Shown here in pieces: positions 776 through 64,000 of a DNA stretch of 64,000 nt. The position numbers and the translations under genes were made by a program. How positions within the stretch are numbered: position 1 is the stretch's first letter; the number at the start of each line of letters is the position of its first letter. The notes under the pieces were generated by a model that had not been told where the DNA came from, did no database searches, and saw only the letters and a list, made by a program, of their open reading frames with translations. Origin of the DNA: Candidatus Latescibacterota bacterium (GTDB lineage: Bacteria; Latescibacterota; UBA2968; GCA-2709665); contig OZ250150.1 of the NCBI GenBank assembly GCA_965237675.1, positions 4,832,001-4,896,000 of the forward strand, given 5' to 3'.

Positions 776-1357
776 CTATCGGAATTCGAGGGAGGACGCG
801 ATGGACCGGTACTCTTCAAGGGGAAAGCTGGAAGACATCCCGTTGCCCATCATCAGATACGCCTTCCGCCCATCCAACACGACCGTTACGATATACCGGT
901 CTCCCCGTCGGCGCAGAAATACGGTCTGGAATATCCACTCGATGCCTTCACGCCCCGATATCTGGAAAGTGCGCTTCTCCTCAGCCCGGTATCCCAGATT
1001 GGTGGACTTCAACTCCTCCTCGAGTTGGGCCGTAACCGTCTGAAGTGTCGCATTTTCTGGAAGCGCCCGGGGCCTCAGCGTCATCACCGCCACGAATCCC
1101 GAAATCGGCTCTCGCCGCATCACCACTTCGACCCGGGGCAATCCGTTTGACTCCCGGGTCTGAAAGTTGGTTTGCGACGTCCAGCCCCACACATCCGGGA
1201 TCGAAATCCGGAATCCCCATTCATCGTTCGAATACACCCGGTCGCCGTCGGAGCCGGCGGTCGGATTGTTGGCGGTGTCATCTGGGATAGGACCACAACT
1301 CAGCAACGCGCCGATACACACTAGGCAGGACCAGATGCTGGTTTGATGTCTGGACAT
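776..1357 (-). CDS. Putative lipoprotein, PsbP/DcrB-like fold
   Basis: Signal peptide with lipobox ALLSC; YSNDEWGFRISIPDVW and C-terminal YRSIASSLEF resemble PsbP-like proteins; SD GGAAGGTGG. Confidence 0.55.
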   Translation of the reverse strand: MSRHQTSIWSCLVCIGALLSCGPIPDDTANNPTAGSDGDRVYSNDEWGFRISIPDVWGWTSQTNFQTRESNGLPRVEVVMRREPISGFVAVMTLRPRALPENATLQTVTAQLEEELKSTNLGYRAEEKRTFQISGREGIEWIFQTVFLRRRGDRYIVTVVLDGRKAYLMMGNGMSSSFPLEEYRSIASSLEFR

Positions 1358-48688: not shown

Positions 48689-49597
48689 ATGATTCCCTTA
48701 CTCAGCAGCCTTTGCTACGGACCGCTTGAAGTCTGCCATCTTCCCAGGACCTGGTGGAAAGTCCTGCTTCGGAACGCGGGCCTGCTCGACGAAGAATACC
48801 CCGACGTCAGCGAAGGCCTGGACAAATCCGTCCTGGAAGTGCTGAACCTGGACAGAGAGACGACCCTGGCGTATTTGCGTGAGAATATGCCCGGCTACCT
48901 CCAGTTCGAAGCCTGGGTCCTCAGACAAAACCACGGAAAGCTCGATCGAAGGGCAATCGATACCTGGAATGAATCCGTGCGCACGCGCGTTCACACCCGG
49001 CCCGATAAGCTGCAGGAAACCACGAGTGACATCGGCATTCCCAACGACGGTACGATCACTTCAGCCGTGATCCTCAACAGCCTCCAGGACTGGTCGCTTT
49101 TCTACAGGCGGGACGTGATGGGGGGATTCGCAACCCTGGGCGGTCGTGTGGTACCCCTCGTCTCCAGCCTGGACTACGGACCACTCAACGTCTGCCAACT
49201 CCCGCGTACCTGGCTGAAGATACTGCTCAGAGCCCGAAATCTGCTTCATCCCGACTATCCCGACATGACCGATAACGGCCTGGATCCCCTGGCGCTGCGC
49301 GCTGTCAACATCCAGCCGCATGACGCCGTTTGTTTCGTCCGGGAAAACGCGCCCTCATATCTTGACTTCGAAGCCTGGATTCTGCGACAGAACGACGGAT
49401 GTGTCGACCCCGGCCCCGTCGACGAATGGAACACATTCGTGCGAACCCGAATCCATTCAAATGAAAAAATCGTGGATATTCACAATACACTCGGCCTGGA
49501 AAACGACGGCAGCCTGACCTCCGCCGTCGTCCTCAATCACGTTGAAGACTGGCACTTCGCGCATGCCGACCTGACGGGCGGGGGCGACAGTTCGTGA
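48689..49597 (+). CDS. Protein with two tandem DUF5069-like domains
   Basis: Internal duplication PL.SSL.YGPL.VC.LPRTW.K ... LTSAV.LN...DW; resembles the DUF5069 LPR..DK motif. Confidence 0.65.
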   Translation: MIPLLSSLCYGPLEVCHLPRTWWKVLLRNAGLLDEEYPDVSEGLDKSVLEVLNLDRETTLAYLRENMPGYLQFEAWVLRQNHGKLDRRAIDTWNESVRTRVHTRPDKLQETTSDIGIPNDGTITSAVILNSLQDWSLFYRRDVMGGFATLGGRVVPLVSSLDYGPLNVCQLPRTWLKILLRARNLLHPDYPDMTDNGLDPLALRAVNIQPHDAVCFVRENAPSYLDFEAWILRQNDGCVDPGPVDEWNTFVRTRIHSNEKIVDIHNTLGLENDGSLTSAVVLNHVEDWHFAHADLTGGGDSS

Positions 49598-49640
49598 ACA
49601 CCGCCCGAAAATCCGGACTCTCTACGAGTCGATTTAATTA

Positions 49641-49669
49641 TTGACATAACGCGAGCCATGGATTAAACT
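49641..49669 (+). promoter_or_regulatory. Near-consensus sigma70 promoter at the start of the WD40 region
   Basis: TTGACA-17 nt-TAAACT with AT-rich upstream GATTTAATTA. Confidence 0.7.
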
Positions 49670-49854
49670 ACCACTAAAGTTACGTATTAGTATACATCTT
49701 CCGTAAATAGAACCGGCGTCGCCGATCTTCCAGGTGCAGCCAGGAGCCCCAACGCCACCCGTGGTCACGCGAAGGCGCCAGGCCCTGAATGAGGCCGCAA
49801 GAGGGGATCCGCTTAGCCTGTGGTTGACGCCATTCTCAAACCCGTTAGCGTTTG

Positions 49855-49946
49855 AAAAGGAGGTGATACCGGAATCCACGTCGCCAAACGTTTTGCCGCT
49901 GTAGATGTACATGAGAAACTGTAGTTCGGGACAAGTGCTGAATTGA
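49855..49946 (+). pseudogene. Leader element copy A: extended SD + degenerate micro-ORF
   Basis: AAAAGGAGGTGATA then CCG-ESTSPNVLPL*MYMRNCSSGQVLN-TGA; start lost and internal TAG, terminal stop at the homologous position. Confidence 0.45.
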
Positions 49947-50390
49947 TACGTTGCGCTGTGTGAGTGATCAAGCGAGGCCGCCGGAAACCGTACATCTGGT
50001 TTCGTCATTTCGCCATCACACCCTCCAGATCAATCCCCAACAGTCCGTTGATAAAGTTGCTCTGCAGGCGGGACTCAGTGTCCCGTCCCGGAACATCGTC
50101 ACCGTTCATCCGGCGATTCACGCCGTCTCGCTCCGTTGCTTGCGCTGTTTGTGCTGAGCCTGTCGAAGGATGCCAGCCGGGCGACTAGGCGGCCGAATTT
50201 CGGCAATCTATTTCCGGGACGGAACACTTGCCAATGTGACCGAAGACAAGGCGTGCGTCCGAGCCGAATCGGTGGATTCGGCGAGGGAGCGCGACAAAGT
50301 AACTCGGCTACAAGAGCCGGTCGCACGACCGGATGGGCATTTTCGATGGGCTGCCAGGTCCCATCAAGCACAGTCTCTTCCTACAGAATC

Positions 50391-50802
50391 TTCACAGTAA
50401 TTCACCCCGTAATCACGTGAATCACAGTCCGTGGTATGGCTGGGCGGCGCGCCCTGCGCCTTAGTCTCAGTCAGTCACGGTAATCACGTGAACCGCAGTC
50501 CGGGGTGTGGTTGTGCGACGTGCCTTCCGCTTTAATCTCCCAGTTAAACACTGTAATCATATGAATCACAGTCCGGGTGTGGTTGGCCGGCGCGCTTTGC
50601 GGTTTAATCACGGTCAATCCCTGCAATCATAGTTAATCACAGTCCGGGTGTGGTTGGCCGGCGTGCCTTTCGGTATAGTCACCGCTAATCCCTGCAATCA
50701 TAGTTAATCACAGTCCGGGGCGGTGGCGGGGAAGTGCGCCCTGCGTTCTTAATCACAGTTCATCCCTGTAATCACAGTTAATCCTAGTCCGGGGGGATTC
50801 AG
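50391..50802 (+). repeat. Tandem array of ~71-nt units (about 5.5 copies) abutting WD40 gene 1
   Basis: Approximate unit TAATCACAGTTAATCCCTGTAATCATAGTTAATCACAGTCCGGGTGTGGTTGGCCGGCGCGCCCTGCGCCT; units start near 50391, 50462, 50533, 50605, 50676, 50750. Confidence 0.85.
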
Positions 50803-52101
50803 ATGAAAGGGTCAACGGTTTCGAGCCTCATTCTTCTTTCTACAGCTGTCTTGTGTGCACAGTTCGCCCACGCGCAGGACTACAATCGCTGGCGCTTGCC
50901 CGAAGGGGCCCTATTGCGGCTGGGCAAGGGAGACGTTCGCGCCGTGGTCTGGTCGCCGGACGGCTCGCGCCTGGCCGTGGGGGGCACCGCCGGCATCTGG
51001 CTCTACGACCCCCTCACCGGGGCCGAAGTTTCACTGATCACGGGCCATACGAGAAGAGTCAATTCAATGGTATATTCGACGGATGGGACGATGCTGGCAA
51101 GCGCCGGTCACGACGGTACGTTGCGGTTGTGGGACGTGGCCACAGGACAGGAAAGGAGCACCATCAAAGCCCATTTCGGGTCCGTCACTTCGGTGGCGTT
51201 TTCGCCGGATGGGATGACGGTGGCAAGCGCTGGTTATGAAGGTCCGGTGCGGTTGTGGGACGTGGCCACAGGGCAGGAGAAAAGCACCCTGGAAGGACAT
51301 ACCAATTGGGTCTTGTCGGTCACGTTTTCGCAGGATGGGACAATGCTGGCAAGCGCCAGTCGTGACAGTACGATGCGGTTGTGGGACGTGGCCACAGGGC
51401 AGGAAAAACACACCCTCACAGGACATTCCGCTGGGGTCAGGTCGGTGGCGTTTTCGCCGGATGGGACGACGCTGGTAAGCGGCAGTTACGACCATATGGT
51501 GCGGTTGTGGGACGCGGCCACAGGGCAGGAAAAACACACCCTCACAGGACATACCGCCGGGGTCTATTCGGTGGCGTTCTCGCCGGATGGGACGACGGTG
51601 GCCAGCGCCGGTCGTGACCGTACGGTGCGGTTGTGGGACGCGGCCACCGGGCAGGAAGAAAGGACCCTCACAGGACATATACGGACTGTCGAGTCGGTGG
51701 CGTTTTCGCCGGATGGTAGGACGCTGGTAAGCGGCAGCCCCTACAACAGGATGCTGCTGTGGGACGTGGACACCTGGCAGGAAAAAGGCGCCCTGACAGG
51801 ACATACGTGGTATCTCGTGACGGTGGCGTTTTCGCCGGATGGGAGGACGCTGGCCAGCGGCAGTTACGACGGCACGATTCTGCTGTGGGATGTGTCGCCG
51901 TATGTCGCACATCCCACGCTTGCCGCAGATTTCGACGGTGACGGGATCGTGGGTTTTCCCGACTTTCTGCGGTTCGCGCCGCAGTTCGGTCAGACCCAGG
52001 GTGATGCCGGATTTGACGCGCGATTCGATCTGGACGGAGACGGTACTGTCGGATTCAGCGATTTTGTGATCTTCGCACGCAGCTTCGGCCTGGGTGGATG
52101 A
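50803..52101 (+). CDS. Secreted WD40 protein (8 repeats) with C-terminal dockerin-like/EF-hand pair
   Basis: Signal peptide ending AHA-QDY; GH...WD 42-aa repeats; DFDGDG..DF twice. Confidence 0.9.
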   Translation: MKGSTVSSLILLSTAVLCAQFAHAQDYNRWRLPEGALLRLGKGDVRAVVWSPDGSRLAVGGTAGIWLYDPLTGAEVSLITGHTRRVNSMVYSTDGTMLASAGHDGTLRLWDVATGQERSTIKAHFGSVTSVAFSPDGMTVASAGYEGPVRLWDVATGQEKSTLEGHTNWVLSVTFSQDGTMLASASRDSTMRLWDVATGQEKHTLTGHSAGVRSVAFSPDGTTLVSGSYDHMVRLWDAATGQEKHTLTGHTAGVYSVAFSPDGTTVASAGRDRTVRLWDAATGQEERTLTGHIRTVESVAFSPDGRTLVSGSPYNRMLLWDVDTWQEKGALTGHTWYLVTVAFSPDGRTLASGSYDGTILLWDVSPYVAHPTLAADFDGDGIVGFPDFLRFAPQFGQTQGDAGFDARFDLDGDGTVGFSDFVIFARSFGLGG

Positions 52102-52264
52102 CACGAAAGCACCATGGCAGAAACTGGTCGCTCAAGGTCTGCATGATTGCCGGGAACCCGCCGCTCGTGCGTGATCGCGGCTCGCCAATGGTACCGTTGG
52201 CGGATATCTGTATTGACATTCTATCGATCTCCTGATAAGACGGCCCCTGAGAAGGAGGTGATAA

Positions 52265-52339
52265 CTGAAATCAACACTGATAAACGTCTGGCAGTCGTAC
52301 GTCTACTTCAATGCGATGACCGGTTGTACAGTTCGTTAA
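52265..52339 (+). CDS. Candidate 24-aa micro-ORF, type II: (M)KSTLINVWQSYVYFNAMTGCTVR
   Basis: GAAGGAGGTGATAA then CTG; same length and stop position as the homologue at 59625. Confidence 0.4.
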   Translation: MKSTLINVWQSYVYFNAMTGCTVR

Positions 52340-52364
52340 CGCCGGTCTACTGCGTGTTCGCGTT

Positions 52365-52478
52365 AGAAAGGTGGTGATATTCGGATCCACGTCGCTAAAC
52401 GTATTGCCGCTGTACATCTACGTGAGAAACTGTGACTCGGGGCAAGTTGCTGCAATGAACCTTGCGCTGTGCAAGTGA
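52365..52478 (+). pseudogene. Leader element copy B2: degenerate type I micro-ORF
   Basis: AAAGGTGGTGATA then TTC-GSTSLNVLPLYIYVRNCDSGQV; start lost; a 1-nt insertion shifts the homologous TGA (52456) out of frame. Confidence 0.4.
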
Positions 52479-52579
52479 TCGAGCGATATATCTGAAATAT
52501 CTTCACAAGGTCTCTACATATCGCCATCACCCTCCAGGTCAATTCCTGAATTCCATCAAGCACAGTCTCTTCATACGTT

Positions 52580-53126
52580 TAATCAAACGTTCCACTCCGT
52601 AACCACGTGAATCCCGGGGCTGAGTGTGAATGGGCGGCGCGCCTTGCGCCACGATTCCGGTCATTCACGCTGCTCTCGTGAATCGACGCCCGGGGTGTGG
52701 CTGCATAGTGTGCCTTGAGCGTAAATCACAGTTAATCATTGGTACCATACGTTTTCCACAGTCCCGGGTGTGGTGGGTCGGCGCGCCCTGCGCCTTCACC
52801 ACAGTCTGTCCCCTGTAATATGTGATTCGCAGTCCGTGTGTGTGGCCGAGCGGCGCGCCCTGCGCCTGATGCCCGGCCAGGTACGGGAATCACGTGAGCC
52901 ACTGTTCGGGGTGTGGTTCGGCGACGTGTCTTCCGCTTCAATTTCCCAGTAGTACAACATAATCACGGGCGTTACGTTCCGGGTACGGCCGAGCGGCGTG
53001 TCTTGCGCTCGATTCCGCCGGCTGATGCCGTTAAATGCGAGAACTACAGTCCCGGGTATGGCAGTGCGGTTTGATTGATGTCAATACGTTCAGTCACAGT
53101 CATTCCTGGTCTGGGAGGGTATCCAG
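52580..53126 (+). repeat. Diverged tandem array of ~71-nt units (about 7.5 copies) abutting WD40 gene 2
   Basis: CCGGG(G)TGTGG...GGCGCGCCCTGCGCC core recurs every 71-73 nt; homologous to the array at 50391. Confidence 0.75.
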
Positions 53127-55178
53127 ATGAAAAGATCTACAATTCTGAGCCTCACTTTTGTATTTACCACCGTCTTATTTTCGGATGAAATCCACGCACA
53201 GGACTACAATCGCTGGAGCCTGCCTGAACGCGCCACGATGCGTCTGGGCAAAGGATACGTGCGCGACGTGGCCTGGTCGCCGGACGGAACGCGCCTGGCG
53301 GTTGGCACGAGCCCCGGCATCTGGCTCTACGATGCCGACACCGGCGCCGAAATTTCCCTGATCACGGGTCATACGGGAAGACTCAATTCGATGGTGTTTT
53401 CGCCGGACGGGACCACACTGGCAAGTGCAGGTCGCGACGGAACGTTGCGATTGTGGGACGTGGCCACCGGGCAGGAAAAAGGCAATATCAGAGCACATCC
53501 GCGGTCTGTCGAAACGGTGGCGTTTTCGCCGGATGGAACGACGCTGGCAAGCGACAGTTACGACGATAAGGTGCGGGTGTGGGACGTGGCCACCGGGCAG
53601 GAGAAAAGCAGCCTGGGGGGACATACGAGGGCTGTCCGTTCGGTGGTGTTTTCTCCGGATGGTCTGACGCTGGCAAGCGCGGGTTACGACAGTACGGTGC
53701 GGATGTGGGACGTGGCCACCGGACAGGAAAAACACATCCTCACAGAACACACGAATCGGGTCAATTCGGTGGTGTTTTCGCCGGATGGCCTGACGCTGGC
53801 AAGCGCCAGTCAGGACAGTACGGTACGGGTGTGGGACGTGGCCACCGGACAGGAAAAACACATCCTCACGGGAGGTACCGGGACGGTCTATTCGGTGACG
53901 TTCTCGCCTGACGGCATGACGCTGGCAAGCGGCTGCGGCGACGATACGGTGCGGCTGTGGGACGTGGCGGCAGGACGGGAGAAGGGCATCCTGGAAGGAC
54001 ATACCGGTTCGGTCATCTCGGTGGCGTTTTCGCCGGACGGGACGACGCTCGCAACCGGCAGTTACGACAGTACGGTGCGTGTGTGGGACGTGGCCACCAG
54101 GCAGGAAAAGCACACCCTCACAGGATATACGTCGCTGGTCAATTCTGTTGCGTTTTCGCCGGATGGGGCGACGCTGGCAAGCGGCATCAGCCGTACGGTG
54201 CGGTTGTGGAACGTGGAAACCGGACAGGAGAAGAGCACCCTTTCAGGACATAAGAATCGCGTCAGGTCGGTGGCGTATTCTCCGGATGGTCAGTCCCTGG
54301 CCAGTGGCGGCGATGATCGTACGGTGCGGGTCTGGGACGTCGCCACGGGGCAAGAAAAACACATCCTCACTGGAGACACCGGCCGCGTCTATTCGATCGT
54401 GTTTTCTCCGGACGGTCAGTTCTTGGCCAGTGGCGGCGATGATCGTACGGTGCGGATTTGGGACGTAGCTACGGGGGAGGAAGAACAAACCCTTACGGGA
54501 CATACCCAATGGGTCTTGTCGGTGGCGTTTTCTCCGGATGGGAAGATGCTGGCAAGTGGCAGTTGGGACGGTGCCGTTCTGCTGTGGGACGTGGCCACCG
54601 GCCAGCAGATAGACATCCTCACGGGACATACCCGTCCGGTCTGGTCACTGTCGTTTACGCTGGATGGGACAACGCTGGCAAGCGCCAGTTCTGACCGTAC
54701 GGTTCGGGTGTGGGACGTGGCCACCGGGCAGGAGATAAGCAGCCTGGAAGGACATAAGTTATTTGTCCGATCCGTGGCGTTTTCGCCAGATGGGACGACC
54801 CTTGCAAGCGGTAGCGACGACGGTACAGTTCGGGTGTGGGGCGTGGCCGCGGGGCAGGAAATAGGCGTCCTCGCTGGACATACCGATATTGTCTATTCGG
54901 TGGCGTTTTCGCCGGACGGGACGACCCTTGCAAGCGGCAGTAACGACGGCACGATTCTGCTGTGGGATGTGTCTCAGTATGTCGCACCTCAACCCCTTGT
55001 TACGGACTTCGATGGCGACGGAACCGTGGCTTTTCCCGACTTTCTGCAGTTCGCGGCGCAGTTCGGGCAAAGCCAGGGGAATGTGGGGTTTGATACCCGA
55101 TTCGATCTGGACGACGACGGTACCGTCGGGTTCAGCGATTTCGTTATCTTCGCACGCAGCTTCGGCCAGGGTGGATGA
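53127..55178 (+). CDS. Secreted WD40 protein (14 repeats) with dockerin-like/EF-hand pair
   Basis: Signal peptide; 14 FSPDG-type repeats; DFDGDG tail. Confidence 0.9.
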   Translation: MKRSTILSLTFVFTTVLFSDEIHAQDYNRWSLPERATMRLGKGYVRDVAWSPDGTRLAVGTSPGIWLYDADTGAEISLITGHTGRLNSMVFSPDGTTLASAGRDGTLRLWDVATGQEKGNIRAHPRSVETVAFSPDGTTLASDSYDDKVRVWDVATGQEKSSLGGHTRAVRSVVFSPDGLTLASAGYDSTVRMWDVATGQEKHILTEHTNRVNSVVFSPDGLTLASASQDSTVRVWDVATGQEKHILTGGTGTVYSVTFSPDGMTLASGCGDDTVRLWDVAAGREKGILEGHTGSVISVAFSPDGTTLATGSYDSTVRVWDVATRQEKHTLTGYTSLVNSVAFSPDGATLASGISRTVRLWNVETGQEKSTLSGHKNRVRSVAYSPDGQSLASGGDDRTVRVWDVATGQEKHILTGDTGRVYSIVFSPDGQFLASGGDDRTVRIWDVATGEEEQTLTGHTQWVLSVAFSPDGKMLASGSWDGAVLLWDVATGQQIDILTGHTRPVWSLSFTLDGTTLASASSDRTVRVWDVATGQEISSLEGHKLFVRSVAFSPDGTTLASGSDDGTVRVWGVAAGQEIGVLAGHTDIVYSVAFSPDGTTLASGSNDGTILLWDVSQYVAPQPLVTDFDGDGTVAFPDFLQFAAQFGQSQGNVGFDTRFDLDDDGTVGFSDFVIFARSFGQGG

Positions 55179-55366
55179 GGCGGCGCACGGTCGGTGCCTC
55201 CCACTTGCCGATTTTGTTACCGTTGGGGAAACACGATGCGGAAGCAGTTGGAGTGCAAGAAGAGGGACACCAGGGCTAAGCGGGAGAGCAATGCCGCCTA
55301 ACGACGTCCACAAAGTCTCTCCATGCTGTTTAATCGGAGTTTATCGCAGTCAGGGAGGGCATTCAG

Positions 55367-56960
55367 ATGAAAAGGTCTACGATTTCGAGCGTGATTTTTG
55401 TTTTGACGGCTGTCTTGTTCGCCCAGGACAGCCGCGCACAGGAGTACAATCGCTGGCGCTTGCCCGAAGGCGCCATTATGCGTCTGGGCAAAGGATACGT
55501 GTGGGACGTGGCCTGGTCGCCGGATCGCACGCGCCTGGCCGTCGGGGGCACCGTCGGCATCTGGGTCTACGATGCCAGCACCGGAGCGGAAGTTTCCCTG
55601 ATCACCGGACATTCCTTCAGAGTCAATGCGGTTGCATTTTCACCCGATGGTCTGACGCTGGCAAGCGGCAGTCGGGACCATACGGTGCGGTTGTGGGACG
55701 TGGCCACCGGAGAGGAAAAAAGCATCCTCACGGGACACAGGTACGACGTCGAGGCGGTGGCATTTTCGCCGGATGGGACAATGCTGGCAAGCGGCAGTCG
55801 CGACGGCACGGGTGTGGGACGTGGCCACAGGCCAGCAAAAACACAGGCTTATCAATGAAAAGTACCCGGATAGGTTGATTAATCCATGGGTCAGGGCGGT
55901 GGCATTCTCGCCGGATGGTCTGACACTGGCCAGCGCCGGAAACGACTCTACGGTGCGGGTGTGGGACGTGGAAACGGGACGGGAAAAGAGCACCCTGGAT
56001 GAACATACCCATTGGGTGTATTCGGTGGCGTTTTCTCCCGATGGGTTGACGCTGGCAAGCGCCAGCCGGGACAGTACCGTGCGGGTGTGGGACGTGGACA
56101 CAGGGCAGGAGAAGAGTACCCTCATAGGACATACGTCCGGCGTCCGATCGGTTGTGTATTCGCAGGATGGGGTGACGCTGGCAACCCGCAGTTTCGACAC
56201 CTCCGCGCGGGCGTGGACGGTGCGGGAGTGGGATTTGGAAACGGGGCGGGAGCAAAGCACCCTCACCCTCACAGGGCATACGTGGTCTGCCAATTCGGTC
56301 GTGTATTCGCCGGATGGGACAATGCTGGCAAGCGGCAGTAACGATCGTACGGTGCGGTTGTGGGACGTGGCCACAGGGCAGCATATACGCACCTTCGCAG
56401 GACATACCCGTGGGGTCGGTCCGGTGGCGTTTTCGCCGGATGGGACAACTGTGGCAGGCGGTGGCGGCTATCGGGACGCAACGGTGCGGTTGTGGGACGT
56501 GGCCACAGGGCAGGAGAAACACACCCTCACAGTACGTGGAGAGAATTTCTTTTCGGTGGCGTTTTCGCCGGATGGCATGACGCTGGCAACCAGCAGTCCG
56601 TACAAGGCGGTTTGGCTGTGGGACGTGGCCACAGGGAGAAACATACGCGCCCTCAAAGGACATACCGATCCAATCTGGTCGGTAGCGTTTTCGCCGGACG
56701 GCAGGACGCTGGCAAGCGCCAGCTACGACTGCACGATTCTGCTATGGGATGTCTCCTCACGTGACGCGTTGCAACCTCTTGCTGCCGACTTCGACGGCGA
56801 CGGGGTCGTGGGCTTTTCCGATTACCTGCAATTCGTCGCGAAGTACGGGCTGCGCTGGGGAGATCCGGGATATGACGCGCGCTTCGATCTGGACGGGGAC
56901 GGTGAAATCGGGTCCCGCGATTGGTGGATCTTCGGGAAAAGCTTCGGCCGGGGTACCTGA
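55367..56960 (+). pseudogene. Frameshifted secreted WD40 protein (10 repeats) with dockerin-like tail
   Basis: Split into ORFs 55367-55858 and 55773-56960; 5-nt deletion at ~55810 (CACGGGTGTGG versus paralogue CACGGTGCGGGTGTGG). Confidence 0.85.
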
Positions 56961-57008
56961 GGCGAACGAACGGTGTCGGAAACAGGTTGCGCCCAGTCCA
57001 AAAAAGGC

Positions 57009-57038
57009 CGGGAATCCACCCCCTACGGCGGGTTCCCG
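57009..57038 (+). other. Hairpin downstream of WD40 gene 3
   Basis: CGGGAATCC...GGGTTCCCG; homologous hairpin at 59508-59541; no U-tract. Confidence 0.5.
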
Positions 57039-57047
57039 CGATGAGAG

Positions 57048-57076
57048 TTGATGCCTTGACGGACATCTGTTATAAC
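57048..57076 (+). promoter_or_regulatory. Sigma70-like promoter upstream of micro-ORF D
   Basis: TTGATG-17 nt-TATAAC with extended TG motif. Confidence 0.55.
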
Positions 57077-57122
57077 ACCCCATCGATCACCCGATTTGAC
57101 CGCGTCTGTGAAGGAGGTGATA

Positions 57123-57200
57123 TTGGAATCAACGTCGAGAAAAGTCAGGCCGCGGTATGTTTACGTGAGAAGCTATGGCTCGGGGCAAGTGCCGAAATGA
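57123..57200 (+). CDS. Candidate 25-aa micro-ORF, type I: (M)ESTSRKVRPRYVYVRSYGSGQVPK
   Basis: AAGGAGGTGATA then TTG; stop at the same position in homologues. Confidence 0.45.
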   Translation: MESTSRKVRPRYVYVRSYGSGQVPK

Positions 57201-57384
57201 CACGACGCGCAATGGGAGCAGTCCCACGTCGCCGTCGATCAATGCACACAACGTCTCTTCATATCTACATCACTCGCTTCAAGTCACAAAAAAAGGGTCA
57301 CATCAATCACAGTCTCATCACGCGATTAATTCACAGTTAATCCCTGTGATCATAAGTTAATCGCTGTACGAGGAGGATTTACAA

Positions 57385-59460
57385 ATGAAAAGATCTGCGA
57401 TTTTGAGCCTCACTCTTATTTTGACCGCTAGCCTGTATGTACAGAACAGCCACGCGCAGGACTACAATCGCTGGAGTCTGCCCGAAGGCGCCCGCATGCG
57501 TCTGGGCAAAGGAAACGTGCTCGACGTGGCCTGGTCGCCGGACGGCACGCTCCTGGCCGCGGGGGGCACTGCCGGCATCTGGGTCTACGATGCCCACACC
57601 GGCGCGGAAATTTCCCTGATCACAGGACATTCGTTCAGAGTCAATGCGGTTGCGTTTTCACCCGATGGTCTGACGCTGGCAAGTGGCAGTCGGGATGATA
57701 CGGTGCGGTTGTGGGACGTGGAAACGGGACAGGAAAAGAGCATCCTCACGGGACATAGGTACGACGTCGAGGCGGTGGCATTCTCGCAGGATGGAACGAC
57801 GCTGGCAAGCGGCAGTCGCGACGGCACGGTGCGGGTGTGGGACGTGGCCACCGGGCAGGAAAAACATACCCTCCTGAATGAAAAGTACCGGGGATTGCTG
57901 AATAAGCCCTGGGTGTATTCGGTTGCGTTTTCGGCCGATGGTCTGACGCTGGCAAGCGCCAATCGGGACAGTACCGTGCGGGTGTGGGACATCGCCACCG
58001 GACAGGAAAAGCATACGCTCACCGGACACACCCATCGGGTCTGGTCGGTGGCGTTTTCGCCCGACGGTAAGACACTTGCCAGTGCAAGTCTGGACAGTAC
58101 GGTGCGGCTGTGGGACCTGGAAACGGGGCAGGAAAAGAGCACCCTCGAAGGACATACTCATCGGGTGTATTCGGTGGCTTTTTCGCCCGATGGTCTGACG
58201 CTGGCAAGCGCCGGTCGGGACAGTACCGTGCGGGTGTGGGACGTGGCCACCGGGCAGGAGAAACACACCCTCACAGGACATACTCATCGGGTGTATTCCG
58301 TGGTGTTTTCGCAGGACGGGATGATGCTGGCAAGCCGCAGTTACGACAATACGGTCCGGACATGGGACGTGGAAACGGGGCAGGAGAGTAGCATCCTACG
58401 CCTTACAGGGCATACACAATCTGTAAACTCGCTGGCGTTCTCGCCGGACGGGCAGACCCTTGCAAGCAGCGGTAACGACCCCGGCATCCGGTTGTGGGAC
58501 GTGGCCACAGGACAGGTAAAAAGCACTTTCGCAGGACATGGGTCGGTGGCGTTCTCGCCGGATGGGACCACGCTGGCAACCGCCGGCGGCCGGGACGGAC
58601 CGATGCGGTTATGGGACGCGGCCACAGGACAGGAGAAACACACCCTCACAGGACATACGTCACCTGTAGAGTCGGTGGCGTTCTCGCCGGATGGGACCAC
58701 GCTGGCAAGCGCCGACGGTCACGACGAAACGGTGCGGTTGTGGAACGTGACCACAGGGAAGGAGAGACACACCCTCGTAGGACATATTGATAGAGTTGGG
58801 ACGGTGGCGTATTCGCCGGATGGATCGACGCTCGCAAGCGCTGGTGGAGACAGCACGGTGCGGTTGTGGAACCCAGCCACAGGGCAAGAGAAAAACACGC
58901 TCACAGTACATGCCTATTGGATCCACGAGTTGGCGTTTTCGCCCGATGGGGCGACGCTTGCAGGCTCCGATTCTCGGGGTACGTTGCGGTTGTGGGACGC
59001 GGCCACAGGGCAGGAGAAAAACACCCTCACAGTACGTGGCGAGAATTTCTTCTCGGTGGCGTTTTCGCCCGATGGGACGACACTGGCAACCAGCAGTCCG
59101 TACAGGGCGGTATGGCTGTGGGACGTGGCCACCGGGCAGAATATACGCGCCCTCAGAGGACATACAGCTCCGATCTGGTCGGTGGCGTTTTCACCGGACC
59201 GCAGAACGCTGGCAAGCGCCAGTTACGACGGTACGATTCTGCTGTGGGATGTCTCGTCACGTGACGCGCTGCAACCCCTTGCCGCCGACTATGATGGCGA
59301 CGGAACCGTGGGCTTTTCCGACTTTCTGCAATTCGTCGCGAAGTACGGGCTGAGCTGGGGAGATGCGGGATATGACGCGCGCTTCGACCTGGACGGGGAC
59401 GGTGAAATCGGGTCCCGCGATTGGTGGATCTTCGGGAAAAGCTTTGGCCGGGGTAACTGA
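57385..59460 (+). CDS. Secreted WD40 protein (14 repeats) with dockerin-like/EF-hand pair
   Basis: Signal peptide; 14 repeats; DYDGDG/DLDGDG tail. Confidence 0.9.
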   Translation: MKRSAILSLTLILTASLYVQNSHAQDYNRWSLPEGARMRLGKGNVLDVAWSPDGTLLAAGGTAGIWVYDAHTGAEISLITGHSFRVNAVAFSPDGLTLASGSRDDTVRLWDVETGQEKSILTGHRYDVEAVAFSQDGTTLASGSRDGTVRVWDVATGQEKHTLLNEKYRGLLNKPWVYSVAFSADGLTLASANRDSTVRVWDIATGQEKHTLTGHTHRVWSVAFSPDGKTLASASLDSTVRLWDLETGQEKSTLEGHTHRVYSVAFSPDGLTLASAGRDSTVRVWDVATGQEKHTLTGHTHRVYSVVFSQDGMMLASRSYDNTVRTWDVETGQESSILRLTGHTQSVNSLAFSPDGQTLASSGNDPGIRLWDVATGQVKSTFAGHGSVAFSPDGTTLATAGGRDGPMRLWDAATGQEKHTLTGHTSPVESVAFSPDGTTLASADGHDETVRLWNVTTGKERHTLVGHIDRVGTVAYSPDGSTLASAGGDSTVRLWNPATGQEKNTLTVHAYWIHELAFSPDGATLAGSDSRGTLRLWDAATGQEKNTLTVRGENFFSVAFSPDGTTLATSSPYRAVWLWDVATGQNIRALRGHTAPIWSVAFSPDRRTLASASYDGTILLWDVSSRDALQPLAADYDGDGTVGFSDFLQFVAKYGLSWGDAGYDARFDLDGDGEIGSRDWWIFGKSFGRGN

Positions 59461-59507
59461 AGCGAACAAACGGTGTAGGAAACAGGTAGCGCAAGTTCTG
59501 CATTAAG

Positions 59508-59541
59508 GCGGGGAACCCATCCCATTGGTCGGGTTCTCCGC
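59508..59541 (+). other. Hairpin downstream of WD40 gene 4
   Basis: GCGGGGAACCC...GGGTTCTCCGC, 11-bp stem. Confidence 0.55.
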
Positions 59542-59624
59542 ATGAGAGTCAAAGCCTTGACCGACCTCTGTTTTGACATTCCGTCGTTCAACCAATCTGG
59601 CCGCGTCTGGAAAGGAGGTGATAA

Positions 59625-59699
59625 CTGGCATCCACGCTGATAAACCTCTGGGCGTCGTACGGCTATTTTAACGCGATGATCTCCTGCACAAGTGGCTAA
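59625..59699 (+). CDS. Candidate 24-aa micro-ORF, type II: (M)ASTLINLWASYGYFNAMISCTSG
   Basis: AAAGGAGGTGATAA then CTG; 16/24 residues identical to the copy at 52265, no indels. Confidence 0.4.
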   Translation: MASTLINLWASYGYFNAMISCTSG

Positions 59700-59740
59700 T
59701 ACCGGCCACGGATCTGATCGCATTCTGAAAGGAGGTGATA

Positions 59741-59818
59741 TTGGAATCAACGTCGAGAAAAGTCAGACCGTGGTATGTTTACGTGAGTAGCTATGGCTCG
59801 GGGCAGGTGCCGAAATGA
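59741..59818 (+). CDS. Candidate 25-aa micro-ORF, type I: (M)ESTSRKVRPWYVYVSSYGSGQVPK
   Basis: AAAGGAGGTGATA then TTG; near-identical to the copy at 57123. Confidence 0.45.
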   Translation: MESTSRKVRPWYVYVSSYGSGQVPK

Positions 59819-59980
59819 CACGACGCGCAATTGGAGGGGTCGCACGTTGCCGTCGATCAATACACACAACGTCTCTCCATATCTAAATCAATCGCCTCAA
59901 GTCACAAAGAGTGTCACATCAGTCAGAGTCTCATCACGCGATTAATTCATAGTTAATCGCTGCACGGGGAGGATTTACAA

Positions 59981-60919
59981 ATGAAAAAGCGAACGATATT
60001 TGGCACCCTCATTCTGTTGACGGCCGTCTTGATCGCCCAGGACAGCCTCGCGCAGGATTATAATCGCTGGAATCTGCCCCAAGGAGCCCGCATGCGTCTG
60101 GGCAAGGGAAACGTGCTCGACTTGGCCTGGTCGCCGGACCGCACGCGCCTGGCCGCGGGGGGCACCGCCGGCATCTGGCTCTACGATGCCCACACCGGCG
60201 CGGAAATTTCCCTGATCACTGGACATTCGTTCAGGGTCAATGCGGTTGCGTTTTCGCCCGATGGTCTGACGCTGGCAAGTGGCAGTCAGGACGATACGGT
60301 GCGGTTGTGGGACGTGGCCACCGGAGAGGAGAAAAGCATCCTTACGGGACACAGGTACGACGTCGAGGCGGTGGCATTCTCGCATGATGGGACATTGCTG
60401 GCAAGCGGCAGTCGCGACGGCACGGTGCGGGTGTGGGACGTGGCCACAGGGCAGGAAAAAAGTACCCTCGTCAATGAAAAGTACCAGGGTAGGTTTAATA
60501 ACCCCTGGGTCGTGTCGGTTGCGTATTCGCAGGACGGGATAAGCCGCAGCTTCGACAATGCGGTGCGACAGTGGGACGTGGAAACCGGGCTGGAGACGGG
60601 CACCCTCAGACTTCCAGGGCATACCTCCGCCGTCCAGTCGGTTGTGTATTCGCCGGACGGGAAGATGCTGGCAAGCGGCGGTAGCGACGGTACGATTCTG
60701 CTGTGGGATGTCTCGTCACGTGCCGCGCTGCAACCCCTTGCTGCCGATTTCGATGGCGACGGGACCGTGGGCTTTACCGACTTTCTGCAATTCGCCGCGA
60801 AGTTCGGGCTGAACTGGGGAGATGCGGGATATGACTCCCGCTTTGATCTGGACAACGACGGGGATATCGGGTATCCCGATTGGTCCATCTTGCGAAAAAG
60901 CTTTGGCCGGGGTTCCTGA
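59981..60919 (+). CDS. Short secreted WD40 protein (5 repeats) with dockerin-like tail
   Basis: Looks like an internally deleted version of 57385-59460. Confidence 0.85.
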   Translation: MKKRTIFGTLILLTAVLIAQDSLAQDYNRWNLPQGARMRLGKGNVLDLAWSPDRTRLAAGGTAGIWLYDAHTGAEISLITGHSFRVNAVAFSPDGLTLASGSQDDTVRLWDVATGEEKSILTGHRYDVEAVAFSHDGTLLASGSRDGTVRVWDVATGQEKSTLVNEKYQGRFNNPWVVSVAYSQDGISRSFDNAVRQWDVETGLETGTLRLPGHTSAVQSVVYSPDGKMLASGGSDGTILLWDVSSRAALQPLAADFDGDGTVGFTDFLQFAAKFGLNWGDAGYDSRFDLDNDGDIGYPDWSILRKSFGRGS

Positions 60920-61083
60920 AGCGAACAAACCGTGTCGGAAACCGGTCGCGCCAATTATCTCCACGAATCCATCACTCGGTGCAGGTCGTCAACAGACTCA
61001 CATCAATCACTGTCTTTTCGGGCCGTTAAATCATAGTTAATCCCTCGTAATCAAAGTTTATCATAGACAGGGAGGGCATTCAG

Positions 61084-63270
61084 ATGAAAAGGTCAACGAT
61101 TTTCGGCCTCATTCTTCTCTCGACATCTTTCTTGCTTGCACAGGACTCCCTCGCACAGGATTACACTCGCTGGGGACTGCCCGAAGGGGCCCTCATGCGT
61201 CTGGGCAAAGGAGACGTGCGCGCGGTGGTCTGGTCGCCGGACGGCACGCGCCTGGCGGTGGGCAGCAGCCTCGGCATCTGGCTCTACGATCCGCGCACCG
61301 GGGCCGAAGTTTCCCTGATTACGGGCCAGATGTCCATAGTCGGGCCGGTGGTGTTTTCGCCGGATGGGTCGACCCTGGCAAGCAACGGTGCGGACAATAC
61401 GGTGCGGTTGTGGGACGTGGCAACCGGGCAGGAAAAACATATGCTCACAGGACATACGGATAGGGTTCAGTCGGTGGTGATTTCACCGGACGGGATGACG
61501 CTGGCAAGCAGCGGTTCGGACAATACGGTGCGGTTGTGGGACGTGGCCACGGGGCAGGAAAAACACACGCTTACAGGACATACCCGTGGGGTCGGCCCAG
61601 TGGCGTTTTCGCCGGATGGGATCACGCTGGCAAGCGGCAGTAGCGACCATACGGTGCGGTTGTGGGACGTGGCCACAGGCCAGGAAAAACACACCCTCAC
61701 AGGACATACCTGGTTTGTCATTTCGATGGCGTTTTCGCCGGATGGGACCACGCTGGCAAGCGGCAGTTACGACCATACGGTGCGGTTGTGGGACGTGGCC
61801 ACAGGCAACGCAAAGGCAACCCTCGAAGGCCATACGGATTTTGTTACACCGCTGGTGTTTTCTCCGGATGGTCAGACTCTGGCCAGTGCAGCTCAAGGTC
61901 GGGGTAATGACCAAACGGTACGGTTGTGGAACGTGGCCAGCGGCCGGGAAAGACACACCCTCATTGGACATACTGAAACTGTCAACTCGGTGGTGTTTTC
62001 ACCGGATGGGCTGACGCTGGCAAGCGGCAGTCGTGACGATACGGTACGGTTGTGGGACGTGGCCACAGGGCAGGAAAAAATCACCCTCACAGGACATACC
62101 GGTAATGTCGGCTCCGTGGTGTTTTCGCCGGATGGGACCACGCTGGCAAGCGGCAGCAGAAACGATGCGGTGCGGTTGTGGGACGCGGCCACCGGCGAGG
62201 AAAAAAACGTCTTCACCGGACATTCGCCTTTGATCAATTCGGTGGCGTATTCGCCGGATGGGACGACCCTGGCCAGCGGCGGTAATGACCGTACGTTGCT
62301 GTTGTGGGACATCGCTACGGCACAGGTAAGACACACCCTCACTGGACATACCAGTACTGTTGTTGCTTCCGTGGCATTTTCACCGGATGGGACGACGCTG
62401 GCAAGCGGCAGTTGGGACAAAACGGTACGTTTGTGGGACGTGGCCGAGGCGCAGGAGAATATCACCCTGACGGAACATACGAATAGGGTCCAATCGGTGG
62501 CGTTTTCGCCGGATGGGACGACCCTGGCCAGCGGGAGTTGGGACCATACGGTGCGGTTGTGGGACGTGGCAAGCGGCCGGGAAAGACACACCCTCACAGA
62601 ACATACCGATGTCGCCACTTCGGTGGTGTTTTCACCTGACGGGATGACGTTGGCAAGCGGAAGTCGGGACCATACGGTGCGGTTGTGGGACGTGACCACG
62701 GGAGAGATAAGATCCACCCTGACGGGACATTCCCACTGGGTCAATCCGGTGGCGTTATCGCCGGATGGGACGATGCTGGCAAGCGGCGGCCCGGACAATA
62801 CGTTGCTGTTGTGGGACGTGGCTACCGGGCAGGTGAGACACACCCTCGCTGGACATACCTTCTTCGTCGACTCCGTGGCGTTTTCGCCGGATGGGACGAC
62901 GCTGGCAAGCGGCGGCTCGGACAGTACGGTGCGGTTGTGGGACGTGGCCACGGGAGAGGAGAAAGGCATCCTGCCAAGTGGGGCCAAGTCGGTGGTGTTT
63001 TCACCGGACGGGAGGACCCTTGCCAGCGGCAGTTACGACGGCGCGATTCTGTTGTGGGATATATCGCCGTATGTCGCGCCTCCAACCCTTGCTGCCGACT
63101 TCGACGGCGACGGGACCGTGGGTTTTCCAGACTTTCTGCAATTCGCGGCGCAAGTCGGGCTGAGCCAAAGCGATGCCGGGTATGACGCGCGCTTCGATCT
63201 GAACGGCGACGATACCGTCGGGTTCAGCGATTTCGTGATCTTTGCACGCAGCTTCGGTCAAAGTGCATGA
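61084..63270 (+). CDS. Secreted WD40 protein (15 repeats) with dockerin-like/EF-hand pair
   Basis: Signal peptide; 15 repeats; DFDGDG tail. Confidence 0.9.
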   Translation: MKRSTIFGLILLSTSFLLAQDSLAQDYTRWGLPEGALMRLGKGDVRAVVWSPDGTRLAVGSSLGIWLYDPRTGAEVSLITGQMSIVGPVVFSPDGSTLASNGADNTVRLWDVATGQEKHMLTGHTDRVQSVVISPDGMTLASSGSDNTVRLWDVATGQEKHTLTGHTRGVGPVAFSPDGITLASGSSDHTVRLWDVATGQEKHTLTGHTWFVISMAFSPDGTTLASGSYDHTVRLWDVATGNAKATLEGHTDFVTPLVFSPDGQTLASAAQGRGNDQTVRLWNVASGRERHTLIGHTETVNSVVFSPDGLTLASGSRDDTVRLWDVATGQEKITLTGHTGNVGSVVFSPDGTTLASGSRNDAVRLWDAATGEEKNVFTGHSPLINSVAYSPDGTTLASGGNDRTLLLWDIATAQVRHTLTGHTSTVVASVAFSPDGTTLASGSWDKTVRLWDVAEAQENITLTEHTNRVQSVAFSPDGTTLASGSWDHTVRLWDVASGRERHTLTEHTDVATSVVFSPDGMTLASGSRDHTVRLWDVTTGEIRSTLTGHSHWVNPVALSPDGTMLASGGPDNTLLLWDVATGQVRHTLAGHTFFVDSVAFSPDGTTLASGGSDSTVRLWDVATGEEKGILPSGAKSVVFSPDGRTLASGSYDGAILLWDISPYVAPPTLAADFDGDGTVGFPDFLQFAAQVGLSQSDAGYDARFDLNGDDTVGFSDFVIFARSFGQSA

Positions 63271-63356
63271 GGCGACGGCGCCTTGCCAGAAAGAGGTCGC
63301 GCCAGGCGATCGGCCGCGCAAGCGGTTTGCGTTTCTCACGGACCAAACTGACTTCG

Positions 63357-63604
63357 GAAAGGAGGTGATATTGGAATCCATGTCGTTAAGTGTCGGACCG
63401 CAGTACATCTACGTGAGAAACTACGGCCCGGGGCAAGTGCTGAACGGCAAGTTGCGCAATGGGAGCGGTCGAGCAATGCCGCCGACCAACGTACACCAGG
63501 TCTCTTCATTTCGCCTTCACTCGCTCAGGTCATTTCAAGAATCACATCAATCACAGTCTCTCCATTTGGGTTTAATCACAGTCCATCATCGTAATCATAG
63601 TTAA
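63357..63604 (+). other. Leader element copy G: extended SD + type I micro-ORF with lost stop
   Basis: GAAAGGAGGTGATA then TTG(63371)-ESMSLSVGPQYIYVRNYGPGQVLN; GGC replaces the homologous TGA and the frame reads on to 63604. Confidence 0.45.
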
Positions 63605-63636
63605 TCACAGTCAATCTTAGTCCGGGGGGTATTCAG

Positions 63637-64000
63637 ATGATCAAGTTAACGTTTTCGAGCCTCATTCTTCTTTTTGCTTCATTCCTGTTTGCACACGACA
63701 GCCGCGCACAGGATTACCTTCGCTGGGGGCTACCCGAAGGGGCCCTCTTGCGGCTGGGCAAGGGAGACGTGCGCGCCGTGGCCTGGTCGCCGGACGGCAC
63801 GCGTCTGGCCGTGGGGGGCACCGCCGGCATCTGGCTCTACGACCCCCTCACCGGGGCCGAAGTTTCCTTGCTCACGGGTCATACGAGGAGAGTCAATCTG
63901 GTGGTGTATTCGCCGGATGGGACGATGCTGGCAAGCGCCGGTCACGACGGTACGTTGCGGTTGTGGGACGTTGCTATGGGAAAGGAAATAAGCACCATCA
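63637..64000 (+). CDS. Secreted WD40 protein, 3' truncated by window (closest to gene 1)
   Basis: MIKLTFSSLILLFASFLFAHDSRAQDYLRWGLPEGALLRLGKG...; missing from the ORF track because no stop is reached. Confidence 0.85.
   Translation, partial: MIKLTFSSLILLFASFLFAHDSRAQDYLRWGLPEGALLRLGKGDVRAVAWSPDGTRLAVGGTAGIWLYDPLTGAEVSLLTGHTRRVNLVVYSPDGTMLASAGHDGTLRLWDVAMGKEISTI

Follow-up and report, generated by a model that had tools for sequence, protein, structure and literature searches.

We analysed a 64,000-nt stretch of genomic DNA from a Candidatus Latescibacterota bacterium (GenBank assembly GCA_965237675.1, contig OZ250150.1, positions 4,832,001–4,896,000), hereafter called the window, in which a Shine-Dalgarno (SD) sequence that matches the 3′ end of 16S ribosomal RNA (rRNA) over an unusual length recurs in the spacers of an array of WD40-repeat genes. 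A comparison of 72 homologous copies indicates that the module carrying this SD block is non-coding and that its conservation is that of a DNA or RNA sequence, not that of a peptide. The element is genus-specific and is not listed in Rfam. We tentatively favour, as close to an even call, an untranslated leader on which 30S ribosomal subunits would dock, either as a roadblock or as a standby site, and which would be similar in function to the STAB-SD sequence of cry3A. The observed basis is sequence conservation, rRNA complementarity, no signal of coding or structure, and a fixed position upstream of genes.

Repeated SD blocks in the window and their distribution

We searched the window for AGGAGGTGATA with at most one mismatch and obtained seven matches, all on the + strand, at positions 49858, 52253, 52369, 57112, 59613, 59730, and 63360. 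The mean number of matches in shuffled sequences was 0.52, and none of 100 shuffles reached seven. All seven sites described in the initial annotation were recovered, including the single copy with a mismatch, which lies at 52369 and reads AGGTGGTGATA. The sites sit in the 420–1000-nt spacers of a tandem array of paralogous WD40-repeat genes (Table 1). The 16S rRNA gene of the organism itself ends in ...GGATCACCTCCTTTCT, and AAGGAGGTGAT is an exact 11-nt complement of this end, which extends to 13 nt with the GA that usually precedes it. The complementarity had been proposed from the canonical 16S 3′ end, and it proved exact against the organism's own 16S rRNA over these 11–13 nt.

The copies are either long modules (type I) or short units (type II). 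The two types differ by 1 nt (GATAACTG in type II versus GATATTG); as noted previously, this difference is placed between the SD block and the proposed start and not inside the proposed frame. In two spacers the types occur as pairs, type II followed by type I (52253/52369 and 59613/59730), with SD-to-SD distances of 116–117 nt, which likewise confirms the earlier description. The genome contains 13 copies in total as determined with nhmmer, and the array extends past the window, which corresponds to G000:C1:4832001–4896000, up to C1:4909446. A lone AAGGAGGTGATACACGT, missed by the element models, is present at G000:C1:4758523 (+ strand), approximately 120 kb upstream of the array, with CCTCC 20 nt downstream of it.

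The comparative set consisted of 72 copies, 45 long (type I) and 27 short (type II-like), drawn from 14 genomes that belong to a single Candidatus Latescibacterota genus. It was composed of the copies of this genome and of element clusters from 13 relatives; the genome G005, with weak matches only, was omitted. BLAST with one element detected it in all 14 same-genus genomes, and no significant match appeared among the 26 genomes searched from other genera. From 41 long copies we built a sequence-only covariance model, which likewise recovered the element in all 14 genomes of the genus, in none of seven genomes from other genera of the family, and as one weak match (E 0.001) among 31 genomes of a second family. 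The records bearing the element are titled Candidatus Latescibacterota, together with a few titled Gemmatimonadota, and an exact pattern scan of genome contigs gave just scattered single matches beyond the records so titled. The host genus is sponge-associated, and sponge metagenomes were among the DNA runs with matching sequence, in small shares. In one related genome, a full-length long module (49 bits) is located at G008:C1:1254950-1255072 (+ strand), remote from the WD40 array.

Conservation of the SD block and its match to 16S rRNA

The SD block was exact in 38 of the 72 copies. With a mean entropy of 0.41, against a median of 1.05, it ranked second among 290 windows of 11 nt, and its identity between genomes was 0.865, compared with 0.605 elsewhere. 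These values indicate that the SD block is under selection. The substitutions within the block, counted in the 71 of 72 copies that matched the 11-mer at at least 8 positions, were A>G (23), A>T (9), A>C (4), G>A (4), T>C (3), and others (5). A>G is the sole change that would keep pairing with the U-rich 16S tail, through G-U; the copies are related, so the excess serves as a hint of RNA pairing and not as a test. The last alternative offered in the initial annotation, that of ribosome-binding RNA elements, is left standing by the conserved block and the A>G bias, and the earlier interpretation as a whole appears partly supported by the comparison.

To place the block within the initiation signals of the organism, we used 3147 roughly called long ORFs (open reading frames). 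A 4-nt SD core preceded 38% of them, against 15% at random places, so that SD-led initiation operates in this organism. None of these roughly called starts showed complementarity longer than 10 nt, and 14 showed at least 9 nt. Since no called start exceeds 10 nt, the elements would be the strongest ribosome-docking sequences of the genome. Nine of the 26 genomic AGGAGGTGAT sites are within the array. As the long rRNA match is mostly not followed by a start codon, the element probably parks ribosomes, with no peptide encoded.

Coding potential of the element

The initial annotation interpreted the sites as a family of translated micro-ORFs of 24–25 codons. On translation, the frames at 57123 and 59741 start with TTG and give 25 amino acids (aa), and those at 52265 and 59625 start with CTG and give 24 aa. 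The three copies that had been listed as damaged are indeed so: the frame at 49869 has CCG at the proposed start and a stop at codon 12, that at 52380 has TTC at the proposed start and is 32 codons long, and that at 63371 starts with TTG and remains open for more than 40 codons, reading through the place of the supposedly conserved stop. The stop position, described as conserved, is so in both type II frames and in two of the five type I frames, and not in the other three type I frames.

The 72 homologues kept neither the start, the stop, the frame, nor a codon periodicity, which contradicts a translated family. At the aligned start, ATG, GTG, or TTG stands in 14 of the 45 long copies, CTG in 2, and a codon that is not a start in 29 (TCG, TTC, CCG, GTC, and others); among the 27 short copies, 8 have a canonical start, 7 a near-cognate one, and 12 neither. 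Stops in the long copies fall at codon 26 in 16 of 45, within 17 codons in 13, at codon 23 in 2, and at codon 32 in 6, and 8 copies have none within 40 codons; ORF lengths spread from 5 to more than 40 codons. The columns of the start and stop rank among the most variable, and column entropies by codon phase were 0.654, 0.748, and 0.715, with no periodicity. Pooled pN/pS in the proposed frame was 0.80, which is within the range of the other five frames (0.68–1.15) and is the kind of outcome that the initial annotation itself had listed as speaking against translation; the 75 nt past the stop gave 0.70–1.06. Conservation extends approximately 150 nt beyond the stop and approximately 60 nt upstream of the SD block.

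These data make it very unlikely that the 24–25-aa products form a functional peptide family of ligands, toxins, or sequence-specific leader peptides. The shared peptide pattern reported earlier is visible on translation (E-S-T-S..V.P.Y.Y), and the stop at codon 26 in the 16 long copies would suit such a family; however, the pattern is explained by nucleotide conservation that is equally strong outside the frame, the start is missing in the 29 long and 12 short copies counted above, and the long copies include 13 premature stops and 14 longer frames. Furthermore, four of the micro-ORF peptides gave no Pfam or NCBIfam match at E ≤10. The 24–25-codon frames should not be called genes in an annotation. 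Hidden longer ORFs were sought in six frames; a 67-codon ATG frame was found in the copy at 57112 alone and was not kept across copies. An ORF on the minus strand was open in the consensus only and was also not kept.

A canonical start 4–12 nt after GGAGG was missing in every frame in 47 of the 72 copies and present in 25, namely in 9 of the 13 copies of this genome and in 16 of the 59 copies elsewhere. The ORF impression given by the window arose because this genome is exceptional in keeping starts. We regard as improbable an explanation in which the copies with TTG or CTG are cis-acting upstream ORFs (uORFs), where the act of translation, and not the peptide, would tune the downstream WD40 gene. 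The 25 copies with a start, the workable SD-to-TTG spacing of 5 nt, and the missing amino-acid constraint, which is compatible with a sequence-indifferent uORF, are consistent with it. Nevertheless, in the 47 start-less copies both the SD block and the remainder of the module are just as well preserved, the ORF length is as variable as described above, and no attenuator-type alternative structures were found. The element shares with leader peptides, uORFs, and small-protein genes a strong SD, a TTG or CTG with a short frame in some copies, and a larger gene downstream, but differs from them in that start, stop, length, and amino acids are unconserved and there is no codon-phase signal.

RNA structure

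The whole window gave no Rfam match at gathering scores, and the region 49500–64000 gave none at E ≤1. For neither strand did RNAalifold place any pair in the consensus of the 43 long or the 25 short copies, and relaxed settings gave scattered pairs only. Two whole leaders folded no better than shuffled sequences (z +0.26 and +1.73). The element resembles a riboswitch or another Rfam leader in being a conserved sequence in a long leader before a set of related genes, and differs in having no Rfam match, no consensus structure, and no folding beyond that of shuffles.

Long-range pairing of the SD with a conserved downstream block, ATCAC.C.CTCC, which resembles an anti-SD interrupted by an insert, was considered and rejected: single-sequence folds give the SD varying partners, and copies with GGTGG and GGAGG share the same CCCTCC, so that there is no covariation. 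A GGA-motif leader bound by CsrA/RsmA was also rejected, as PF02599 (CsrA) had no match in this genome.

Read in reverse complement, the block equals 13 nt of the 16S tail, and a minus-strand RNA carrying AUCACCUCCUUUC would thus imitate the 16S 3′ end and might cover SD sequences on mRNAs. We consider such an RNA hardly probable: no conserved structure, terminator, or promoter was found on the minus strand, and all copies share the orientation of the downstream gene.

Position of the element and origin of the repeating unit

Where a long module stands immediately ahead of a WD40 gene, its SD is in most cases located 251–279 nt before the ATG, and every copy is oriented like its downstream gene. 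The repeating unit is approximately 116 nt, and a spacer holds one or two copies. Six relatives have a short unit 127–130 nt before the ATG of a gene for a 392-aa protein, whose real ribosome-binding site (RBS) and ATG occupy the SD position of the next unit. This protein has the N-terminus MDRDDLKGRMEALEE..., a repeated middle part, and an EF-hand/dockerin-like tail as in the WD40 proteins. The simplest history would be a tandem duplication of a piece of the 5′ untranslated region (UTR) containing the RBS. The upstream copy may then have lost its start codon and been refined towards full rRNA complementarity.

The same arrangement could be explained by relic RBSs, where a 116-nt piece of the 5′ UTR was duplicated in tandem, lost its start, and persists without function by gene conversion among spacers. 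This explanation is also improbable, to a similar degree as the uORF explanation. The unit length and the real RBS at the next SD position in the six relatives agree with it, as do the paralogous spacers within a genome, which are often near-identical, and the confinement to one genus (14 of 14 genomes, with none of seven in other genera and one weak match among 31 in the other family). Relics would be expected to decay like their surroundings, yet the identity of the block exceeds that elsewhere, none of the 3147 roughly called real starts has a match as long as the block, and the neighbouring start-codon columns are among the most variable.

Proposed function and comparison with known systems

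We suggest that the element is a genus-specific non-coding leader or intergenic module that was multiplied along with the tandem array of secreted WD40 genes. The module region would be transcribed as part of the WD40 mRNA, and its SD block would capture a non-initiating 30S subunit. The parked ribosome would act as a roadblock or a standby platform in the long 5′ leader. It may shield the WD40 message from 5′-end-dependent decay, here by RNase E/G, and/or may raise the supply of ribosomes to the real RBS approximately 250–280 nt downstream.

The original work on STAB-SD is reportedly that of Agaisse and Lereclus in 1996 and Mathy et al. in 2007. RNase E/G is encoded in the genome studied here. 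The cry3A STAB-SD is described as an SD-like 5′ UTR sequence that precedes the start by approximately 129 nt and is bound by 30S with no initiation, and the bound 30S is described as stabilising the mRNA by blocking RNase J1, a 5′–3′ exonuclease (PMC4113751). For Escherichia coli, another report describes bound ribosomes as obstacles to the 5′-end-dependent scanning of RNase E, with engineered obstacles (PMC9943677).

The present element is like the STAB-SD in two respects. It is SD-like and complementary to the 16S 3′ end over an extended length, exact in the 38 copies mentioned above; and it lies far upstream of the real start (127–130 nt for the short unit and approximately 250–280 nt for the long module, beside approximately 129 nt in cry3A). 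It may also resemble the STAB-SD in directing no initiation, as judged here from sequence (47 of 72 copies without a canonical start and 25 with one). A STAB-SD-type stabiliser lies in the 5′ UTR near the 5′ end of the stable transcript; the element here keeps a conserved position upstream of its gene. It differs in its host, since cry3A belongs to Bacillus thuringiensis, a Firmicute, and the present genome is a Latescibacterota metagenome-assembled genome. It also differs in that the block is within a module of approximately 190 nt with other conserved blocks, and in that there are 1–2 copies per spacer at 13 places in a gene array. The RNase E obstacles offer a mechanism by which a ribosome bound in the 5′ UTR protects downstream sites in an organism with RNase E/G, such as the present one; they represent a general E. 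coli principle with engineered obstacles and not a natural dedicated element.

Several observations weigh against 30S docking. RNase J (TIGR00649) had no match in this 99.9% complete genome, whereas the control matched in 13 of 14 control genomes; with no RNase J detected, the element does not belong to STAB-SD as far as mechanism is concerned. The counts given above are not independent, as each genome holds paralogous copies and the genomes are of related species. Some of the copies with workable start spacing, which are the majority in this genome, may be translated. A stable lineage of six species has GGTGG, with weaker rRNA pairing. Moreover, two further blocks, GAATCCACGTC and TCGGGGCAAGT, match the SD block in conservation and show no rRNA complementarity beyond chance: they have just 7–8-nt complements in the rRNA operon of approximately 7 kb, which was judged to be at chance level without a control. 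Docking of 30S by itself leaves the conservation of these two blocks unexplained.

The latter blocks bear on an explanation at the DNA level, in which the blocks, including the SD-like one, are transcription factor sites or parts of a promoter or operator driving the WD40 genes, and the likeness to an SD is secondary. We consider this unlikely, though it accounts for several features: the module has several separate conserved blocks of 11–15 bp, two of which equal the SD block with chance-level rRNA complementarity; neither strand shows a conserved RNA structure; and several motifs with an ACGT core recur within the first 60 nt. A scan for sigma-70-type promoters and intrinsic terminators gave TTGACC-17-GATATT in one copy, which fits a promoter but is limited to that copy and not conserved. 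On the other hand, 38 of 72 copies retain an exact 11–13-nt match to the 16S tail of the organism itself, which would hardly arise as a by-product, the A>G bias fits RNA pairing, and in six relatives a real RBS occupies the homologous position of the block.

A more specific form of the 30S-docking reading would make the element an RNase J-independent counterpart of STAB-SD outside the Firmicutes, namely a start-less 13-nt super-Shine-Dalgarno in 116-nt units, born from RBS duplication, that parks 30S and protects or boosts the WD40 mRNAs of a sponge symbiont with RNase E/G. This form is possible, though we hold it to be doubtful. If the block were a docking site on which ribosomes do not initiate, the STAB-SD principle would reach an uncultured Gram-negative-type phylum lacking RNase J, the way in which sponge symbionts drive expression of their expanded eukaryote-like WD40 proteins would become open to testing, and the element would be an example of docking elements arising from duplicated RBSs.

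The WD40 gene array and its spacers

The features of the array are summarized in Table 1. The N-termini of the array proteins are signal-peptide-like, and the proteins are predicted to be secreted. Their C-terminal tails are EF-hand/dockerin-like, with Dockerin_1 scores of 18.8–20.6 bits, under the cut-off of 22.9.

Table 1. Positions of the element copies, genes, and other features. Positions are those of the window unless a locus of a relative is named; distances are from the SD to the ATG.
Feature	Position	Strand	Remarks
Long module, copy 1	49843–50033	+	SD block 49857–49868 (AAGGAGGTGATA); terminal block CGCCATCACACCCTCCAGATCAA; 945 nt before ATG 50803
Short unit, copy 2 (type II), ~116 nt	52238–52353	+	SD 52253–52263, then GATAACTG
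Long module, copy 3	52354–52542	+	SD variant AGGTGGTGATA 52369–52379; 758 nt before ATG 53127
Long module, copy 4	57097–57287	+	SD 57112–57122, TTG 57123; 273 nt before ATG 57385
Short unit, copy 5 (type II)	59598–59714	+	SD 59613–59623
Long module, copy 6	59715–59905	+	SD 59730–59740, TTG 59741; 251 nt before ATG 59981
Long module, copy 7	63345–63533	+	SD 63360–63370, TTG 63371; 277 nt before ATG 63637
Short element before 392-aa gene	L030:~1210–1340	-	
Short element before 392-aa gene	L032:8064–8195		
Short element before 392-aa gene	L033:3860–3990		
Short element before 392-aa gene	L034:6383–6515		
Short element before 392-aa gene	L035:6653–6785		
Short element before 392-aa gene	L036:6199–6330		
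Secreted WD40-repeat gene, 432 aa	50803–52101	+	
Secreted WD40-repeat gene, 683 aa	53127–55178	+	
Secreted WD40-repeat gene, 691 aa	57385–59460	+	EF-hand/dockerin-like tail; Dockerin_1 20.6 bits versus cut-off 22.9
Short WD40-repeat gene, 312 aa	59981–60919	+	
WD40-repeat gene, 728 aa	61084–63270	+	Upstream spacer 165 nt, with the proximal module only and no SD element
Next WD40-repeat gene, 5′ part	63637–64000	+	Continues outside the window; 682 aa in the genome
Gene-proximal leader	57288–57384	+	Rich in AATCACAGT repeats; real RBS (GAGGAGGA) at the end, then ATG
G+C-rich hairpin	57007–57040	+	After the upstream WD40 stop, ~75 nt before the SD; kept in one spacer class

The last ~100 nt before the ATG form a proximal module, which is rich in AATCACAGT and separate from the SD module. 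It is also found upstream of WD40 genes without an SD element (for example at window position 61084) and of a few unrelated genes; it lies 17–19 nt before the ATG both of these WD40 genes and of an unrelated 691-aa gene at C1:4594220 (- strand). On C1 there are 75 occurrences of the 9-mer AATCACAGT on the + strand and 18 on the - strand, where approximately 21 are expected. At 63574–63622 of the window, AATCA(C/T)AGT repeats in a 10-nt phase lie immediately upstream of the real RBS, and the same was seen at other WD40 genes on C1.

In one spacer class, a long G+C-rich hairpin, GCCGGGAACCC...GGGTTCCCGGC, is present past the WD40 stop (at 57007–57040, at 59505–59540, and at the corresponding sites of relatives). 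Beyond the hairpin, these spacers have a conserved stretch that contains two TTGAC motifs at a distance of 16 nt and GATCACCC approximately 25 nt before the SD. The other spacer class has none of these features. The hairpin at 57007–57040 resembles a terminator, although a U tract is missing, and a terminator role would be conceivable.

Two long spacers contain arrays of a 71-nt tandem repeat, at 50405–50793 (5.4 copies) and at approximately 52560–53100. The repeat unit carries AATCACAGT motifs and a G+C-rich hairpin (GGCGGCGCGCC..GCGC). According to nhmmer, the 71-nt units are confined genome-wide to these two spacers, in which the SD-to-ATG distances are 945 and 758 nt. Between the ORFs at 53127–55178 and 55773–56960 (WD40, 395 aa), neither an SD element nor a proximal module is present. 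The overlapping ORFs at 54889–55878 suggest a broken or recombined WD40 paralogue.

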